Assembly: GCA_964364425.1 (NCBI GenBank)
Contig: CAYIMB010000001.1
Location: 72,941 to 135,361, forward strand
Source: an uncultured Gammaproteobacteria bacterium
GTDB lineage: Bacteria > Patescibacteriota > Patescibacteriia > UBA9570 > JBBTWU01
Direction: 5' to 3'
DNA: 62,421 nucleotides
Both the position numbers and the translations under genes were made by a program. Numbering within the stretch: position 1 is the first letter of the stretch; every line of letters begins with the position of its first letter. Of the stretch, positions 9,152 through 61,392 are shown in pieces. The notes under the pieces are model-generated. The model was not told the origin of the DNA and made no database searches. It worked only from the letters and a program-made list of their open reading frames with translations.

Positions 9152-10264
9152 ATGAGTAGATTGGGTATTCAAGTTCGTGACTGGATGTGGCGCTTGAAAC
9201 AGAATCAACGAGCTCAAATTGTTGGAGTAGTTGTGATCTTGGTGGTTTTAGGGAGTGCTGTCGGAACAGCCTTGGCTTTTTGGTTTACACAACGACCCGT
9301 TTCATCTGTTTCCAGTAGTGTAAACTGGAACCAGAATACGCATACATCTGCTGGACCGCGTCGCTTGCTTGACGGGGTGTTTGTGGATTCAGAGCAGGCC
9401 GCAGCGGTTCTACCGGTGTCTATCATGATTGAAAATCTTTCTACCGTTCGGCCGCAACATGGCTTAGGTCAAGCGAGTGTGGTGTATGAAGCCTTGACCG
9501 AAGGTGGGATCACCCGCTTCATGGCAGTCTACGCCGGTGCAGGAGAGATGAGCTCCATGGGTCCCGTACGCAGCAGTCGTGAGTATTTTGTGGATTGGGC
9601 GGATGAATACGGAGGGGTCTACGTACATGTGGGAGGAAGTCCGGCTGCTCTGGAGCATTTATCCACTGACCAAAAGATAGTCGATTTGAATCAGATTGGC
9701 GGGGATCAAATTTATTTTTGGCGCGACTCTGCCGTAGCAGCTCCGCACAATTTATTTACATCTAGTGAAAAGATGGCCTTTGCCATGCGCGACTATTTGG
9801 GCGAACAACCCGTGGCCAGTGTTGAGCCATGGGTATTTAAAGCTGATGCCAAGAAAGAAGACCGCCCGAGCGGTGATCATCATGTGCAAATCGATTTTTC
9901 CAGTGACAGCTACGCCGTGGATTGGAAATATGAACGGAAAACAAATACCTACGTGAGATCAAATGGGGGAGAAGAGCAAATTGATCAATTGACCAACCAA
10001 CCGCTCAGAGCGCATACTGTGGTGGTCCAATTTGTGTCTACTTCTTTGGTTGATCAAGCAACCGGTAGGCTAGAGATGCAGACGGTAGGCACAGGACAGG
10101 CGGCGGTATTTCTGGATGGACAACGGATTGACGGAACTTGGAAAAAGGTAGATGACTCAGCTCGTACCAGGTTTTATACCAACCAAGGAGCAGAGGTTCC
10201 ATTTAACGCCGGCACGATTTGGATAGAAGTAGTGCCTGATGATAGAGAAATAATTTCAACCTAA
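9152..10264 (+). CDS. DUF3048-family (YerB-like) membrane-anchored protein, copy 1
   Basis: 370 aa with an N-terminal TM. Core PVSIMIENLSTVRPQHGLGQASVVYEALTEGGITRFMAVY and ...APHNLFTSS, as I recall for DUF3048. Confidence 0.8.
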   Translation: MSRLGIQVRDWMWRLKQNQRAQIVGVVVILVVLGSAVGTALAFWFTQRPVSSVSSSVNWNQNTHTSAGPRRLLDGVFVDSEQAAAVLPVSIMIENLSTVRPQHGLGQASVVYEALTEGGITRFMAVYAGAGEMSSMGPVRSSREYFVDWADEYGGVYVHVGGSPAALEHLSTDQKIVDLNQIGGDQIYFWRDSAVAAPHNLFTSSEKMAFAMRDYLGEQPVASVEPWVFKADAKKEDRPSGDHHVQIDFSSDSYAVDWKYERKTNTYVRSNGGEEQIDQLTNQPLRAHTVVVQFVSTSLVDQATGRLEMQTVGTGQAAVFLDGQRIDGTWKKVDDSARTRFYTNQGAEVPFNAGTIWIEVVPDDREIIST

Positions 10265-24943: not shown

Positions 24944-26239
24944 ATGAAGCGAATATTTGGAGGAATAGGAGCGGTATTTGGGTTATTTGCCTTCCTTTTT
25001 TTGTTTACCGGGTTGGCTTTTGCCGTGTCTGAAGATGAAATTCAAAATTTGATAGAACAAAACCGGGATATTCAGACCTTAAACAAGCAAATTCAGGAGA
25101 AGTCCAGCGCCATTAGTGAGATAGACCAAAAAATAGATGTGTATCAAGAGGCTATAGAGCGGAAACAATCTGAAGCCTTTAATTTGGAAAATCAGATTGC
25201 GGTGATTGAGAATGACATAGAGAAAACTGATAAAGAAATTGATAAAACTCAGTTGGAATTAGATCGATTGAATCTGGAATTGCAAGGTTTAGATCTCAAA
25301 ATTGACCGGACCAACAGTGACGTGGCAGTGACCAAAAGTAGAGTAGGGGATACCTTGCGTCTGCTGTACCAATCAGAACAAAAAAGTCCAATTGAGATTA
25401 CGTTTAGCGTAAACACGTTATCTGAATTTTTTTCCCAGTTAACGTATCAAAAAACCTTACAAACTAGCTTGCAACAAGATTTAGATCAGTTAGAACAATT
25501 AGGTAGTCAGTTGGAACAAGAAAAAGGGGAGGCGACTATCAAGCGCAAGGAAGTTTCTCAAGCAGAACAACAACTTGAAGCACAGCAACAGTCACTTGAA
25601 GGGGAGCGGGTATATAAAGATGAATTGTTGGAAAAAACTGAAGCAGATGAAGAAAAATTTCAACAACTGGTGCAAGAAGCGCGGCAAGAACAGACCAGGG
25701 TAGATGCGGAGATTAATTCGTTGGAATCCAAAGTCCAAACTCAAATAGAAGAGTTACGCAAACAAGCAGAAGAAAAGCGTGACAATGGGGAAGAACTCAC
25801 TGAAGAAGAGGAAGAGTTATTAGTGGGTGATGTCGTCTTTTCTTGGCCCATAGATTCACGTGATATTTCTTGCGGATTTCACTGTAGTGGCTACCCCTTT
25901 GCTAAATGGTTTCAACATTCAGGGATTGATATTCGGACTCCTCAGGGCACTCCGGTGAAGGCTGCTGCCTCTGGGTATGTGGGGATTGCTAAGTCTGACG
26001 GTACTCCGGCCTTGGCTTATGTCACCATAGAGCATAATGGGACGTATGCGACCGTGTATATGCATTTAAGTGGTGTAAACGTCTCCCCAGGGCAGTTTGT
26101 GCATAGGGGAGAGGTGATAGGCTATTCAGGGGGGCTTCCAGGTACGCCTGGAGCAGGGGCCTATTCCACCGGGGCTCACTTACATTTTGAGGTTCGGGTA
26201 GACGGGATTCCACAAGATCCGTTACCGTTCTTGCCGTAA
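24944..26239 (+). CDS. M23 (LytM) peptidase with a long N-terminal coiled coil (EnvC-like architecture, catalytic residues intact)
   Basis: 431 aa with a signal/TM, a ~250-aa heptad-rich region, then FQHSGIDI (HxxxD) and GAHLHFEV (HxH). Confidence 0.9.
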   Translation: MKRIFGGIGAVFGLFAFLFLFTGLAFAVSEDEIQNLIEQNRDIQTLNKQIQEKSSAISEIDQKIDVYQEAIERKQSEAFNLENQIAVIENDIEKTDKEIDKTQLELDRLNLELQGLDLKIDRTNSDVAVTKSRVGDTLRLLYQSEQKSPIEITFSVNTLSEFFSQLTYQKTLQTSLQQDLDQLEQLGSQLEQEKGEATIKRKEVSQAEQQLEAQQQSLEGERVYKDELLEKTEADEEKFQQLVQEARQEQTRVDAEINSLESKVQTQIEELRKQAEEKRDNGEELTEEEEELLVGDVVFSWPIDSRDISCGFHCSGYPFAKWFQHSGIDIRTPQGTPVKAAASGYVGIAKSDGTPALAYVTIEHNGTYATVYMHLSGVNVSPGQFVHRGEVIGYSGGLPGTPGAGAYSTGAHLHFEVRVDGIPQDPLPFLP

Positions 26240-26255
26240 AGTAAATCGATATGAA
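26240..26255. repeat. palindromic-motif copy and left 12-bp direct repeat (GTAAATCGATAT, 26241-26252)
   Basis: AGTAAATCGATATGAA begins 1 nt after the M23 stop codon. The 12-mer recurs exactly at 27155-27166. Confidence 0.7.
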
Positions 26256-26356
26256 ATTTAAGGGTGAACTAATAAGACCTTTAGGGTTGGAATAGTAATT
26301 TTTCGTACAAGTTTTTTATGACAAAAAAGCCTAGTAAACCAGGCATATTTTCTATG

Positions 26357-26384
26357 TTGATTTTTTATGAATTTCCTGTATAGT
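26357..26384 (+). promoter_or_regulatory. promoter for the small basic ORF
   Basis: TTGATT-16 nt-TATAGT-9 nt-ATG 26394. Confidence 0.4.
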
Positions 26385-26393
26385 AAGAAGCAT

Positions 26394-26561
26394 ATGAGAG
26401 GCGTCAAACAATTTTTTAAGAGATCCTTTTTGAATAAAAGACGGCAAAATTTGAATTATGCTTCTCTTTCTGCTGAACAGAAAAAAGAAAAAATGAAGAA
26501 AGAGGCAAAAAAGTTTTTAGAAGAGTACGCAGACGTAATGAACTCTTTAGCTAGTAAGTAA
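26394..26561 (+). CDS. small, very basic protein in antitoxin position upstream of the Doc-like gene (hypothetical)
   Basis: 55 aa from ATG 26394 (MRGVKQFFKRSFLNKRRQ...EEYADVMNSLASK). The track ORF opens at 26367. Ends 10 nt before the Doc-like ORF. Confidence 0.35.
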   Translation: MRGVKQFFKRSFLNKRRQNLNYASLSAEQKKEKMKKEAKKFLEEYADVMNSLASK

Positions 26562-26571
26562 GTATAGAAAA

Positions 26572-26919
26572 TTGTTTCCCATTTCTTTACCTCCTATTCA
26601 TCATGGTTGGTATGAAGCTGTTGTTCAGGCTTTTGATCTTACACAACTTGAAATTTCTTATCTACCTCCAGAACAACAAAGCGTATATCAAGCCTGCGCC
26701 AGAATTTTTTATAAGATAGACAAGAATCACACTCGCATAGATGGTAATAAGAGAAGTACACTACTTTGTGTTTATTTTTTCTTATTCGTTAATGATATGC
26801 ACCTTCCTGTAACCAAGAAGGAGGAACTAGAAGATTTAGCTATCTATATAGCAAAGTTCACATTGGCGCCAGCCTTTTACCCCGCGGCTTGCCGCGGGGT
26901 TGTTGATTCGGTCCAGTAG
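26572..26919 (+). CDS. Doc/Fic-family (death-on-curing-like) protein, atypical
   Basis: HTRIDGNKRSTLL fits the Fic/Doc motif Hxxx(D/E)GNKR, with R replacing the usual F. It is followed by a Doc-like helix (LEDLAIYIAKF). The only in-frame start is TTG, with no SD, so it may be decaying. Confidence 0.45.
   Translation: MFPISLPPIHHGWYEAVVQAFDLTQLEISYLPPEQQSVYQACARIFYKIDKNHTRIDGNKRSTLLCVYFFLFVNDMHLPVTKKEELEDLAIYIAKFTLAPAFYPAACRGVVDSVQ
26879..26900 (+). terminator. GC-only 9-bp stem-loop (ACCCCGCGG-cttg-CCGCGGGGT) followed by TTGTTGATT
   Basis: Perfect inverted repeat read directly from the sequence. It lies within the last codons of the Doc-like ORF. Confidence 0.4.
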
Positions 26920-27153
26920 CTCTCCATTTGTTAGTGCTAAAACGGGGGGAATCATCACGGCGAAGAGAAATCCGACCACGAGTCCGCTGACCCCAAATTT
27001 TATTTTATCTTTCATAAGCGTGCTTAAATAAATCTTACATGGATAACACTATTTAATACCCACTATAGCATTCTTTAAAGGGGAGAGATAATAAAACAAA
27101 TCTAATGTGTCGCACAATATACATTTTACGAACCATAGAGCTGTATGATCCCC

Positions 27154-27169
27154 TGTAAATCGATATTTT
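27154..27169. repeat. palindromic-motif copy and right 12-bp direct repeat (27155-27166)
   Basis: TGTAAATCGATATTTT, located 50 nt downstream of the zinc-ribbon gene stop. Confidence 0.7.
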
Positions 27170-27215
27170 TGAAAAAGGGGTTATTTCTTCCCTAGTACTG
27201 TTAGATCTATGGTGC

Positions 27216-59222: not shown

Positions 59223-59675
59223 TTATACACGTCGTGGTTTCTTGGCCCGGGGTCCATTATGCGGAATAGGGGTAATATCTCGGATGGTCGTCATATTAAA
59301 GCCTTGAGCGTTCAAGGCACGGACTGCGCCTTCACGGCCGCTGCCAATTCCCTTGATAAACACCTCAACTTCTTTTAGGCCCATATCCCTGACTTTCTCT
59401 GCTACGGTTTTCACAATCACTCCAGCCGCATAAGGGGTTGATTTCTTTGGACCTTTAAACCCGCAAGCTCCGGCTGAAGACTGAGCTAAAGCGTTTCCGT
59501 GGCTGTCCGTGAAGGTCACAATGGTGTTGTTGTAGGTCGCCTGAACATACACCCGACCCTTAGATACTTGTTTCTTTTTACGTTTCTTCTTTTTTGCAGC
59601 CACTGCCCCAGTTTCTTCCGTTCCTGTGTCGGCAGTTTCCTTTGGGGCGAGGTCAGTTGTTTTGATATCTTCCAT
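59223..59675 (-). CDS. rpsK: 30S ribosomal protein S11 (with a ~20-aa acidic/Lys-rich N-terminal extension)
   Basis: 150 aa with GRVYVQATYNNTIVTFTD...GFKGPKKSTPYAA. Confidence 0.95.
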   Translation of the reverse strand: MEDIKTTDLAPKETADTGTEETGAVAAKKKKRKKKQVSKGRVYVQATYNNTIVTFTDSHGNALAQSSAGACGFKGPKKSTPYAAGVIVKTVAEKVRDMGLKEVEVFIKGIGSGREGAVRALNAQGFNMTTIRDITPIPHNGPRAKKPRRV

Positions 59676-59678
59676 AGT

Positions 59679-60071
59679 TTATGTCTTTTGAGCAGAAATT
59701 TTACGACCAGACCCCATGGTTTTGCGCACGTTCCCACGCACCGTTCTGGTATTAGTTTTGGTTCGTTGGCCACGCACTGGTAAATGACGGGCATGTCTAT
59801 TGCCCCGGTATGAACCAATTTCCTTCAAGCGTTTGATGTTGCCTAAAATTTCGCGTTTTAATTCACCTTCAATACGGTAACCACCCTTTTCAATTTCATT
59901 TCTGAGTTCTTGGACTTGTGCGTCCGTTAAATCTTTGGTGCGGGTGTCTACGTTGATTCCTGTTTTCTTTAAAATATTTTTGCTCAAGGTTGGGCCAACA
60001 CCGTAAATAGAGGTGAGCGCCACCTCAATTCGTTTTTCATTTGGTAAATTAACTCCAGCTATACGTGCCAT
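59679..60071 (-). CDS. rpsM: 30S ribosomal protein S13
   Basis: 130 aa with [26 protein letters not shown]. Confidence 0.96.
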
Positions 60072-60074
60072 AAA

Positions 60075-60188
60075 TTATCCTTGTCGTTGTTTATGTCGTG
60101 GATTTTTACAAATGACCATCACGCGGCGGTTTCTTCGCAGCGTCTTGCAGTCGGCACACATTTTTTTGACTGAGGCTCTTACTTTCAT
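60075..60188 (-). CDS. rpmJ: 50S ribosomal protein L36
   Basis: Below the ORF-track size cutoff. My translation is [37 protein letters not shown] (37 aa). Confidence 0.9.
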
Positions 60189-60203
60189 GTAAATCGATTT
60201 ACA
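60188..60203. repeat. perfect 16-bp palindrome TGTAAATCGATTTACA spanning the infA stop codon and the rpmJ start codon
   Basis: Read directly from the sequence. The minus strand reads CTG-TAA-ATCGATTTAC-ATG. Confidence 0.8.
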
Positions 60204-60483
60204 GGCGGAATGTAATGCGTCCTTTGGTTAGATCATACGGAGTCATTTCAACCGTCACCCGGTCTCCAGCTAAGATGCGAATTTTGTTCATCCGCATTTT
60301 GCCTGAGAGATGGGCCAGTATAATCTGGCCGCTATCTAACTTCACCCGAAATGTTCCGGCGGGCAAACATTCCTCAACCACTCCGTTGACGGCTATGAAG
60401 CCTTTCTTACTGACAGAAATTTCCCCAGTCTTGGGGGCGTTTCTGGGTATAAATGGAGTGTGTGGTTTAGTCTGATGAGCCAT
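60199..60483 (-). CDS. infA: translation initiation factor IF-1 (with a ~20-aa N-terminal extension)
   Basis: 94 aa. [63 protein letters not shown] aligns with the canonical S1-fold IF-1. Confidence 0.93.
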
Positions 60484-60604
60484 GAATACACTTAAAAACC
60501 CTCCATCCCCTTTTGATTACAGAGGATAGTTGAGAATTGTGCACCGGAGTGGGCGGTATTTCGTGACAAATTCTTGGGTTTCTGCTATTTGTAAATGCTG
60601 GCGA

Positions 60605-60633
60605 AGAATAACAGGAGCTTATCTACGTGTCAA
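60605..60633 (-). promoter_or_regulatory. sigma70-type promoter for the infA-rpmJ-rpsM... operon, with a ~110-nt leader
   Basis: Minus strand reads TTGACA(60633-60628)-17 nt-TATTCT(60610-60605). Confidence 0.5.
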
Positions 60634-60635
60634 GT

Positions 60636-60661
60636 TGTAATGAAACGGCTGTAATGAAACG
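60636..60661. repeat. two tandem 12-nt direct repeats (TGTAATGAAACG, period 14) abutting the -35 element
   Basis: Units at 60636-60647 and 60650-60661 are identical. On the minus strand: CGTTTCATTACA-gc-CGTTTCATTACA-ac-TTGACA. Confidence 0.8.
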
Positions 60662-60662
60662 A

Positions 60663-60696
60663 CCTGGCAGAGGATCTCAGTGGAGATCATACCAGG
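60663..60696 (-). terminator. stem-loop downstream of the Nudix-like gene
   Basis: Outer stem CCTGG/CCAGG and inner stem GATCTC-agtg-GAGATC. On the minus strand it is followed by TCGTTTCATT. Confidence 0.4.
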
Positions 60697-60754
60697 CTGT
60701 TCCAAGGGGCAATGTTGGGCTACAGGCGGTGGCTGTGGCTGACGAGCCAGTCTT

Positions 60755-61318
60755 TCATGTTCTCTCACGGTGGAAGGCTTCCAGAGCGGTCGGGATGACC
60801 TTGGTGCGGTGTTGTTCCAATATGGGTTCCGGCAAGTCCATGACCGAGTACCACCGAGTCCCCGGGCCGGCCTCCGCGTCCACCAGGAATATCAGTGCCA
60901 CGAAGTGCCCCCGCTCTTCCGTGAGGTGGTTGTTGTGCCCCACCAGGCGGGGGTTGCGGATGTCCGTCATGGCCTCCGTGCGCTGCAGCCGGGCGAACAG
61001 GTCGGCGTCGCTCTCCCCGGGCCGGTAGACTGAACCCGGGCAGTGGAACTGGCCGGGGTAGGTTTCCTGGGGGCCGCGCTGACGCAGCAGGACTTCCGGG
61101 CCAGTCTCCGTCTGCCGGAAGCAACAGGCCTCCACCGCCGTGGTCACCGTCAGGCGGGCCAGGGCGTTGAACAGCTTGGTGCCGTAGGTCCCCTGTGGGA
61201 TGATGTTGAGCAGCTCCGCAACCAGGAACTTGACCTGTTCACGGTCCGGGTCAGGAGACTCAATTCCGAGCCTGCGCAGGGCCTGTCCGACCCTTTCAAG
61301 TGTTCCATTCAGACTCAT
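60755..61318 (-). CDS. orphan Nudix-fold-like protein with a degenerate Nudix box and a ~55-aa N-terminal helical extension
   Basis: 187 aa, the longest ORF in the island. GGAGG lies 8 nt upstream of the ATG. ...EACCFRQTETGPEVLLRQRG...YPGQFHCPGSVYRPGESDADLFARLQRTEAMT...GHFVALIFLV...WYSVMDLP fits the Nudix beta-grasp layout, but REUxEE is replaced by RLQRTE. Confidence 0.6.
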   Translation of the reverse strand: MSLNGTLERVGQALRRLGIESPDPDREQVKFLVAELLNIIPQGTYGTKLFNALARLTVTTAVEACCFRQTETGPEVLLRQRGPQETYPGQFHCPGSVYRPGESDADLFARLQRTEAMTDIRNPRLVGHNNHLTEERGHFVALIFLVDAEAGPGTRWYSVMDLPEPILEQHRTKVIPTALEAFHRERT

Positions 61319-61392
61319 GATCTCTCCCTCCTAGGAGTGGGCCAAGGTAAACACTAAAACAGCGCAAAGTCAATGCCATACGCTATTTTGGC

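Follow-up and report, generated by a model that had tools for sequence, protein, structure and literature searches.

A GC-rich Nudix-superfamily gene between alaS and infA in a low-GC patescibacterial genome

A stretch of 62,421 nucleotides (contig CAYIMB010000001.1 of assembly GCA_964364425.1, positions 72,941 to 135,361 of the forward strand), referred to below as the window, holds a GC-rich block at 60661..61345 made up of one coding sequence and its 3' hairpin. The coding sequence, called gene X here, lies at 60755..61318 on the minus strand and encodes 187 aa, in which three N-terminal helices precede a Nudix-fold domain. It is flanked by alaS from 61416 onward and on the other side by infA-rpmJ-rpsM-rpsK-rpsD-rpoA-rplQ, the identity of rpmJ having been checked by translation. 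In sliding windows of 300 nt, GC content rises from 0.45–0.47 to 0.63–0.70 across about 60700–61300 and falls back to 0.44–0.45. The peak of 0.700 stands at z = 7.0 against a background of 0.458 ± 0.034 (maximum 0.563), and outside the block GC in 1-kb bins is at most 0.51 throughout the 62-kb window. Gene X has a GC content of 0.64 and a third-position GC (GC3) of 0.81, which is 9 standard deviations above the 56 other open reading frames (ORFs) of the window (mean 0.45, maximum 0.52). Its codon adaptation index (CAI), calculated with ribosomal-protein genes as the reference, is the lowest of 57 window ORFs (z = −2.7). Spurious ORFs overlap the gene, as is expected of GC-rich DNA. The block is a self-contained single-gene unit consisting of a −35-like box, a GGAGG, the 187-codon coding sequence and the hairpin. 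An earlier sequence-only reading of the window had described the block, its single gene with overlapping ORFs, the GGAGG 8 nt before the ATG and the two flanks, and all four descriptions held. It had also considered, conditionally, that the genome belongs to the candidate phyla radiation. This was borne out by the window RpoA, which is 60–71% identical to the proteins of metagenome-assembled genomes (MAGs) labelled Kerfeldbacteria, Doudnabacteria, Uhrbacteria and "Patescibacteria group".

Gene X by itself gives little indication of its family. It scores 16.1 bits against the Pfam NUDIX model, under the gathering cutoff of 21.1, and has weak matches to MutT2 and other Nudix proteins of the PDB. 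An exhaustive hidden Markov model (HMM) search of 1.84 billion representatives at E<=1e-3 placed it in a family of at least 648 clusters (50% identity), 35 of them at E<=1e-30, and gene X matches the family profile with 220 bits. PF00293 (Pfam NUDIX) is matched by 86 of 126 aligned family members, and the family profile retrieves Nudix proteins from the PDB, the best being 2fml (E=1e-11), together with NrtR (3gz5 and 3gz8), AraR (5bs6) and GDP-mannose mannosyl hydrolase (GDPMH; 1rya and 2gt4). An AlphaFold2 model computed from a 29-sequence alignment reached pLDDT 94 and pTM 0.83 (an earlier 7-sequence alignment gave pLDDT 55). It has predicted helices at residues 3–20, 26–37 and 46–54, followed by a Nudix alpha/beta sandwich that closes with a single C-terminal helix. 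Foldseek gave 396 matches in the PDB at E<=1e-3, and all those among the matches listed are Nudix proteins; they include NUDT18, NUDX1, AraR, MutT2, CDP-Chase, NrtR and UDP-X diphosphatase, with no subfamily standing out. The family profile and the predicted structure thus allow the Nudix-superfamily fold to be assigned with confidence, in agreement with the sequence-only reading, which had also placed about 55 helical residues before the fold and noted a degraded box.

The box of gene X reads S96-x5-E102-x7-R110-L-Q-R-T-E115-A-M and departs from the canonical GX5EX7REUXEEXGU. The family consensus is G-S-x2-R-P-G-E-x7-R-L-x3-E-F-G, so that the degeneracy is a trait of the family, and the equivalents of E53 and E56 of MutT are lost family-wide. 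Residues conserved in at least 90% of the 126 sequences are E63, R68, R81, H92, P94, G95, R110, E115, R136, G137, W156, P163 and H170. A Pfam helix-turn-helix match was not found in X. Gene X adds to the Nudix superfamily a new member, one of an unnamed family that resembles GDPMH, and a literature search returned no paper joining Patescibacteria, GC content, horizontal transfer and Nudix proteins.

The sequence-only reading had taken gene X for an orphan. A word-indexed search of 5.8 billion proteins found six close homologs with 70–88% identity, all from Logan assemblies, in addition to the large family described above. Wherever the context could be read, the homolog lies directly upstream of infA on the same strand. 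The gene upstream of X is alaS in two of these loci (L001 and L003), and in two others (L004 and L005) an additional FG-GAP gene separates alaS and X. This FG-GAP-repeat gene encodes 685 aa (L004:961-3018, and L005) and belongs to one lineage of the X clade. Counting the window, the same-site arrangement is present in 7 independent assemblies of a genus-level Patescibacteria clade, all 7 sampled members carry gene X, and the orthologs sit on contigs of 45–135 kb. Both junctions can be aligned across the assemblies, the upstream one with TTGACT and GGAGG and the downstream one with the hairpin, GTTTCATT, the infA promoter and the infA leader. The insertion is therefore genuine and not a chimeric contig end, as the sequence-only reading had argued. 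Since the flanks differ at 48% of four-fold sites, the seven assemblies are not one strain. The flanking genes have 90–96% protein identity and saturated synonymous divergence (dS 0.6–2.7), except for the slowly evolving infA. The X proteins are 69–78% identical in the clade comparison, with a ratio of nonsynonymous to synonymous divergence (dN/dS) of 0.22–0.33 and a proportion of synonymous differences (pS) of 0.44–0.52. Gene X is thus real and held by purifying selection, and its rate of evolution is about 5 times that of its housekeeping neighbours.

Relatives outside the clade show how the gene came to its present site. Gene X was found in none of 80 labelled relatives, and no family members were found near their rpoA. 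It had been proposed to check whether close relatives have alaS directly adjacent to infA. This is the case (gap <=450 nt) in 17 of the 52 labelled Patescibacteria relatives that have both genes on one strand, and the spacer of the other 35 holds 0.5–4.9 kb of other DNA. The occupants of the gap in these 52 relatives have the GC content of their locus, with no GC island. Within the phylum, DNA has been inserted repeatedly between alaS and infA. As alaS adjoins infA in relatives where X is absent, the two genes were ancestrally adjacent; X arrived a single time, in the common ancestor of the genus-level clade, and has been inherited vertically since. Near-identical copies of X-family genes in unrelated flanks were not found, and neither were tRNA genes in the window, an integrase or meaningful flanking repeats. 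An 11-nt pair at 60512/61403 was considered as a target-site duplication and rejected, being at chance level and not kept in orthologs. Phage or defence origin was likewise rejected, given the absence of PHROGs matches, a best PADLOC match of only E=0.04 and two negative scans of IMG/VR viral contigs. Of the features of a mobile cassette, gene X has the atypical composition, but mobility hallmarks and presence/absence variation among close relatives were not observed.

The GC content of gene X has been held, not lost, within this clade. The seven orthologs have GC3 of 0.78–0.93 against a flank GC of 0.41–0.44. At four-fold sites the X orthologs differ at 42%, compared with 63% at saturation for their own composition, and the flanks differ at 48% compared with 73%; from 0.42/0.63 and 0.48/0.73 it follows that the relative synonymous divergence of X equals that of its flanks. 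The four-fold differences in X comprise 374 exchanges between G and C (strong-strong, S-S) and 312 between GC and AT (strong-weak, S-W), and those in the flanks comprise 43 S-S and 290 S-W. A neutral F81 model of amelioration calibrated on the flanks and started from a 100% GC ancestor predicts a four-fold-site GC (GC4) of 0.76 and an S-W:S-S ratio of 3.2, and the observed values are 0.845 and 0.83. In this model GC4 is 0.76 at most and the ratio never falls below 2.8, whatever the age of the insertion. To hold GC4 at 0.845 against a neutral 0.41 requires a bias of S ~2.05. Ameliorating transferred genes are marked by GC3 decay and an S-W excess, neither of which is found here. Simple amelioration after a recent or an old acquisition is rejected, and GC in the X clade is at compositional equilibrium (GC4 ~0.85) despite synonymous turnover at the level of its neighbours. 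An ancient origin in a GC-rich donor would not by itself account for this persistence.

The anomaly extends to the wider family. A set of 80 JGI loci was assembled from a 22-sequence alignment (an earlier scan with a narrow alignment was negative); the loci were retrieved by X-like peptide patterns and confirmed with X as the query, a route that may favour X-like composition. For 67 loci the flanks span 1 kb or more; the GC content of the family gene exceeds theirs by more than 0.10 in 53 of these and falls below it in just 2. Among these 67 loci the median excess is +0.14 and the maximum +0.25, with flank GC of 0.29–0.55. Compared with the 324 other ORFs of 56 loci, the family gene ranks first in GC3 within its own locus in 46 cases. 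Its GC3 exceeds the host-codon expectation by a median of +0.18 (maximum +0.47), and amino-acid composition accounts for only about +0.07 of GC. In a metagene profile the rise starts at the start codon and is over within 40 nt after the stop, and upstream intergenic GC is slightly under the flank mean. Three further syntenic clades keep the elevation despite deep divergence of their flanks, with GC3 of 0.75/0.78 versus 0.37 in L087/L088, 0.89/0.85 versus 0.41 in L155/L163 and 0.50–0.53 versus 0.31–0.35 in L097/L108/L111. Of the 324 neighbouring ORFs, GC3 is raised in family paralogs and in three HAD hydrolase genes next to family genes, and in no others. Two of these hydrolases (L087:4212-4883 and L088:4210-4824, both on the minus strand) have GC3 of 0.67–0.71 against locus medians of 0.31–0.33, and the third (L096:4316-4972, plus strand) has 0.46 against 0.29. 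A separate clade of paralogs is fully native in composition (GC3 0.22–0.41). An unbiased list of 149 representatives gave 70% with a summed frequency of Gly, Ala, Arg and Pro (GARP) of at least 0.26, the signal being steady down the ranking; among members with DNA, such values are seen only in GC-elevated ones. Several of the family-bearing contigs come from 0.1-um groundwater fractions, going by record names alone.

The genomic context points to nucleotide sugars. The distant family members examined all lie among nucleotide-sugar or polysaccharide genes. Counting 99 immediate neighbours (from the 80 JGI loci and others), GDP_Man_Dehyd (31), Epimerase (26) and RmlD_sub_bind (25), which are one extended class of short-chain dehydrogenases/reductases (SDRs), are the most frequent, followed by DegT (7), glycosyltransferase family 2 (6), NTP_transferase (5), NTP_transf_3 (4), several C-methyltransferases and 3 UDP-glucose dehydrogenases. 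The window has glycan genes of its own at 49.7–56.6 kb, namely a flippase, two family 4 glycosyltransferase genes and an ABC-2 exporter, and X lies 4 kb upstream of them with the ribosomal operon in between. Many family loci have two or three tandem paralogs (L087:5001-6325, L088:5001-6327, L100:472-2514, L097:4328-5495 and L108:4159-5507), and two-domain fusions exist (P0008 of 398 aa, P0010 of 374 aa and others), which suggests that these proteins may form hetero-oligomers. Tandem copies can differ sharply in composition. Those of L087/L088, 117 nt apart, have GC3 of 0.75–0.78 and 0.26, and the three copies of L100 have 0.57, 0.57 and 0.22.

The closest functional parallel is GDPMH (Gmm/WcaH/NudD; PDB 1RYA and 2GT4), described as a Nudix family without REXXEE (PMC2707057). 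Alignment of the X family with GDPMH by hhalign, using a GDPMH sequence verified against 1rya, places RLxxxEfG on RLTMAELG with a probability of 89.7% and E=1.8e-6. The two share the Nudix fold and the loss of the identical box glutamates, the GDPMH box R-L-T-M-A-E-L-G corresponds to R-L-x3-E-x-G of the X family so that both belong to the modified-box type, and R37, R65 and E70 of GDPMH align with R81, R110 and E115 of X. In both cases the genes occur in polysaccharide or nucleotide-sugar clusters with GDP-mannose-dehydratase-type SDRs, DegT aminotransferases and nucleoside triphosphate (NTP) transferases. GDPMH cleaves a GDP-sugar at C1 of the sugar, which releases GDP and the free sugar, and in E. 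coli it is found in a colanic-acid and O-antigen context. The likeness is partial, however. The profile match to 1rya/2gt4 reaches only E ~1e-3 at profile positions 58–118, full-length homology was not obtained and the His124/Tyr103 region of GDPMH has no demonstrated equivalents in X. X also differs from GDPMH by its N-terminal helical extension of about 55 residues and by the C-terminal motifs ERGHF and HHR. UDP-X diphosphatase (4HFQ) and CDP-Chase (3Q1P/6NCI) offer a second comparison, sharing with X a length of about 200 aa with a helical N-domain before the Nudix domain (191–202 columns aligned by Foldseek). These proteins are dimers whose substrates are cell-wall precursors linked to a nucleotide. 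Their Nudix box is canonical, its glutamates are required, and they have been described as limited to Gram-positive bacteria (PMC3655063). The canonical box is absent in X, and superposition of the whole chains is poor (rmsd 7.7–11.6 A). The effector domains of NrtR and AraR (3GZ5, 3GZ8 and 5BS6), which are degenerate, non-hydrolytic and bind sugar-nucleotide-like ligands, are among the better matches of X. In those proteins the effector domain is joined at its C-terminal side to a winged-helix DNA-binding domain; X has none and does not belong with these regulators.

Because of its box, its conserved residues and its genomic context, the X protein may be a nucleotide-sugar hydrolase. Judging from the sequence and the model, it would act on a nucleotide-sugar, probably as a dimer, and its likeliest activity would be hydrolysis in the manner of GDPMH, with H138 or H170 as a candidate His base and E102, R110 and E115 at the putative metal/phosphate site. 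Such an enzyme could trim or proof-read the activated-sugar pool that supplies the glycan cluster 4 kb downstream. Taking these results together, gene X is probably an old, vertically inherited Nudix-family gene directed at nucleotide sugars, the GC-rich coding of which is actively maintained. The broader proposition, that a GDPMH-like family of nucleotide-sugar clusters has been held GC-rich over the long term in low-GC Patescibacteria by a gene-specific force bounded by the coding sequence, is put forward more tentatively and has somewhat less than an even chance of being right. Such a force would have to hold GC3 at up to 0.9 against 0.4 in the neighbours, which corresponds to S ~2.

If a GC-favouring force of S ~2 acts on gene X, its likeliest source would be selection acting on how the transcript or coding sequence is composed. 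One proposal, the weakest step of the mechanism, is that non-optimal GC-ending codons and a strongly structured mRNA would throttle a potentially wasteful hydrolase. It is made because GC-ending codons are non-optimal in these genomes and the CAI of X is the lowest; the predicted minimum free energy (MFE) of the mRNA is −229 to −294 kcal/mol for about 580 nt. Selection on transcript composition would rank first among the proposals, followed by conversion/replacement or GC-biased gene conversion (gBGC), and then by an exotic possibility, codons adapted to the translation machinery of a host rich in GC, should the gene or its mRNA be used outside the symbiont.

Several observations weigh against maintained GC-rich coding and a GDPMH-like activity. 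The predicted mRNA structures have no consistent excess over synonymous shuffles (MFE z from +0.9 to −2.4), and in organisms whose effective population sizes are presumably modest, S ~2 would amount to strong selection. GC at first and second codon positions (GC12) rises with GC3 (slope 0.25, r=0.80, 84 family genes), with GARP up and Phe, Tyr, Met, Ile, Asn and Lys (FYMINK) down, so the pressure is on all codon positions; this covariation is more in keeping with a pressure at the nucleotide level than with codon selection alone. Some family members lack the elevation: L091, L124, L126 and L179 are native in composition, and L090 and L177 are elevated slightly or moderately. Native-GC members exist, and the protein therefore does not need GC-rich coding. 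Taxonomy is established for a minority of the family-bearing contigs. On the functional side, the hhalign alignment with GDPMH spans only the N-terminal half (79 columns, 23% identity), and GDPMH is outside the top 50 Foldseek matches of X. X is also the sole family member in the window, with no tandem paralog, and is not inside a sugar cluster. Finally, the good ranking of the non-catalytic NrtR and AraR domains makes pure ligand binding a live alternative.

Other explanations of the block have been weighed. A chimeric join of a high-GC fragment during assembly would produce an abrupt switch of composition near a contig end such as is seen here, but the same arrangement with conserved junctions recurs in 7 independent assemblies from different runs, in contigs of 45–135 kb that embed the gene, and an artefact has a negligible chance of being the cause. 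The sequence-only reading had favoured recent uptake of the gene from a high-GC organism, perhaps the host of an episymbiont, with its GC not yet ameliorated. The strongly atypical composition (GC3 z=+9, CAI lowest in the window), the sharp boundaries and the absence of relatives of X from 185,579 GTDB species representatives, which were searched for a donor, and from the 80 labelled relatives agree with it. This account was overturned by the X clade itself, in which the gene has syntenic orthologs with orthologous junctions in 7 assemblies, has co-diverged with its flanks to the same synonymous depth under purifying selection and holds GC3 at 0.78–0.93. Neutral amelioration is rejected whatever the insertion age, no family member is seen in a high-GC context (flanks 0.29–0.55), no donor was found, and the searches for near-identical copies in unrelated flanks and for tRNA genes, an integrase and meaningful flanking repeats were negative. 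Recent acquisition is therefore very unlikely. In the model of Lawrence and Ochman, a horizontally acquired genomic islet reportedly undergoes amelioration. Gene X resembles such an islet as a lone atypical gene of patchy distribution inserted in a conserved intergenic spacer, and differs from it in the lack of amelioration despite neighbour-level synonymous divergence, in an anomaly that is common to homologs at unrelated loci and bounded by the coding sequence, and in the lack of mobility genes, tRNA genes and target-site repeats. Just as improbable, and if anything slightly more so than recent acquisition, is that the block owes its high GC to a second role of its DNA, such as an overlapping or antisense gene or a structured RNA. 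Long alternative-frame ORFs do overlap gene X, and in 5 of 7 orthologs an antisense frame runs uninterrupted from end to end. Open antisense frames are an expected by-product of high GC3, however, and this one is interrupted in L003 and in the window, where it spans 95 codons. Conservation of the alternative frames was not seen, and an overlapping or antisense gene was rejected. Synonymous sites turn over freely (pS 0.44–0.52), the MFE z-scores are inconsistent (+0.9 to −2.4) and there is no Rfam match within the gene.

An old transfer that brought a GC-rich lineage into low-GC Patescibacteria, its GC kept up since then by recurrent allelic replacement or conversion from a GC-rich pool or by gBGC at a recombination-prone gene, is a stronger contender, though still improbable. 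The covariation of GC12, GARP and FYMINK with GC3 fits nucleotide pressure or long residence in a GC-rich background, GC3 is phylogenetically structured into a GC-elevated clade and a native paralog clade, and the adjacent HAD hydrolase of L087/L088 and L096 is GC-elevated as in a two-gene cassette. Polysaccharide loci are, moreover, typically prone to recombination. What speaks against this explanation is that the elevation halts at the bounds of the coding sequence with no spill into flanking DNA, that divergence in the X clade matches that of the flanks with no sign of allele sharing, that a GC-rich reservoir was not found, and that bacterial gBGC is usually weak and S ~2 would be needed. 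With regard to function, X could instead be a non-catalytic Nudix ligand sensor, a pseudoenzyme or the regulatory partner of a paralog, which is unlikely but slightly less so than the conversion scenario. The family-wide loss of E53 and E56 of the canonical box, the good ranking of the NrtR (3gz5/3gz8) and AraR (5bs6) effector domains and the tandem paralogs and fusions that suggest hetero-oligomers are in its favour. Yet GDPMH with the same box losses is a proficient enzyme, the conservation of E102, R110, E115, R136-G137 and H170 in at least 90% of 126 sequences fits an active site, the 187 aa hold the helical extension and the Nudix domain only, with no winged helix-turn-helix, and the native-GC paralogs are also without the canonical box, which leaves no obviously catalytic partner.

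Recent horizontal transfer is as a rule diagnosed from atypical GC and codon usage. In the present case what looks like a textbook foreign cassette is old, vertically inherited and compositionally stationary, and its anomaly recurs in unrelated low-GC genomes. The long-term keeping of gene-specific GC-rich coding in low-GC genomes is an unusual and potentially important result. If the gene-specific GC-favouring force is real, detectors of horizontal transfer that use composition would misclassify such genes, the amelioration clock would not apply to them, and they would be a counter-example to the equation of a GC island with recent horizontal transfer. The discordant tandem paralogs (GC3 0.78 beside 0.26) are a natural experiment that sets selection on coding composition against the mutational background. 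Apart from its composition, the unnamed Nudix family of at least 648 clusters with a GDPMH-type box is tied to the deoxy- and amino-sugar nucleotide pathways of uncultivated small-genome bacteria, and it is a candidate for control of the activated-sugar pool from which their cell surfaces are built.

The signals that surround gene X are well conserved in the clade. The region at 61345..61373 on the minus strand, with a −35-like TTGACT at 61368–61373 and a weak −10-like hexamer about 17–18 nt downstream, probably serves as its promoter. TTGAC is invariant across 8 of 8 aligned orthologous spacers, including those of L004 and L005 with a different upstream gene, and a consensus scan did not call a promoter for gene X. 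The Shine-Dalgarno GGAGG at 61327..61331 (minus strand) was located by direct reading of the sequence and is kept in the orthologs as GGAGG or GGAGGG. The 3' hairpin at 60655..60704 (minus strand) begins about 50 nt past the stop codon and is followed by GTTTCATT; the stem-loop noted by the sequence-only reading at 60663–60696 is real, and its extent is larger than was given. The hairpin has 20 predicted pairs (−24.8 kcal/mol) and is near-invariant in the 7 orthologs, with one compensatory pair, although 42% of four-fold sites differ among the orthologs. It probably terminates transcription of gene X; the terminator scan did not call it because a long T run is absent. The hairpin motif occurs only in X-clade loci, and none of the near-matches elsewhere in the window form hairpins. 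Its conservation goes beyond the needs of a plain terminator, and it could be a protein- or RNA-binding element.

The promoter of the infA-rpmJ-rpsM operon, at 60605..60633 on the minus strand, reads TTGACA-17 nt-TATTCT with a TG extension and matches the scan at 10 of 12 positions. It is kept in the orthologs and delimits the X module on its downstream side. A 14-nt tandem duplication (two copies of TGTAATGAAACG, spacing 14) at 60636–60661, located between the X hairpin and the −35 box of infA, is particular to the window, the orthologs having a single copy. The infA 5' leader of about 120 nt (60484–60604, minus strand) is strongly conserved in the clade; it contains GCATTTACAAATCGCAGAAACCCAAGAATTTGTCACGAAATACC and an inverted repeat ACAAAT/ATTTGT, and may be autoregulatory. 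The dS of infA is unusually low compared with its neighbours (0.29–0.66). Initiation factor 1 (60199–60483, minus strand, 94 aa) is some 20 residues longer at its N-terminus than is usual in bacteria, and ribosomal protein S11 (59223–59675, minus strand, 150 aa) has an N-terminal extension rich in Lys, Glu and Thr; both extensions are kept in the clade. The only Rfam match, sub-threshold at 22.3 bits (gathering score 38; E=0.016), is to Alpha_RBS, the alpha-operon leader to which S4 binds; it lies at 60039–60093 on the minus strand, where rpsM starts. Elsewhere in the window, the AT-rich stretch at 26200–27200 lies in 1-kb bins of 0.405–0.415 GC at 25–28 kb, and the second-highest 300-nt GC value (0.563) is found at 9351–9650.

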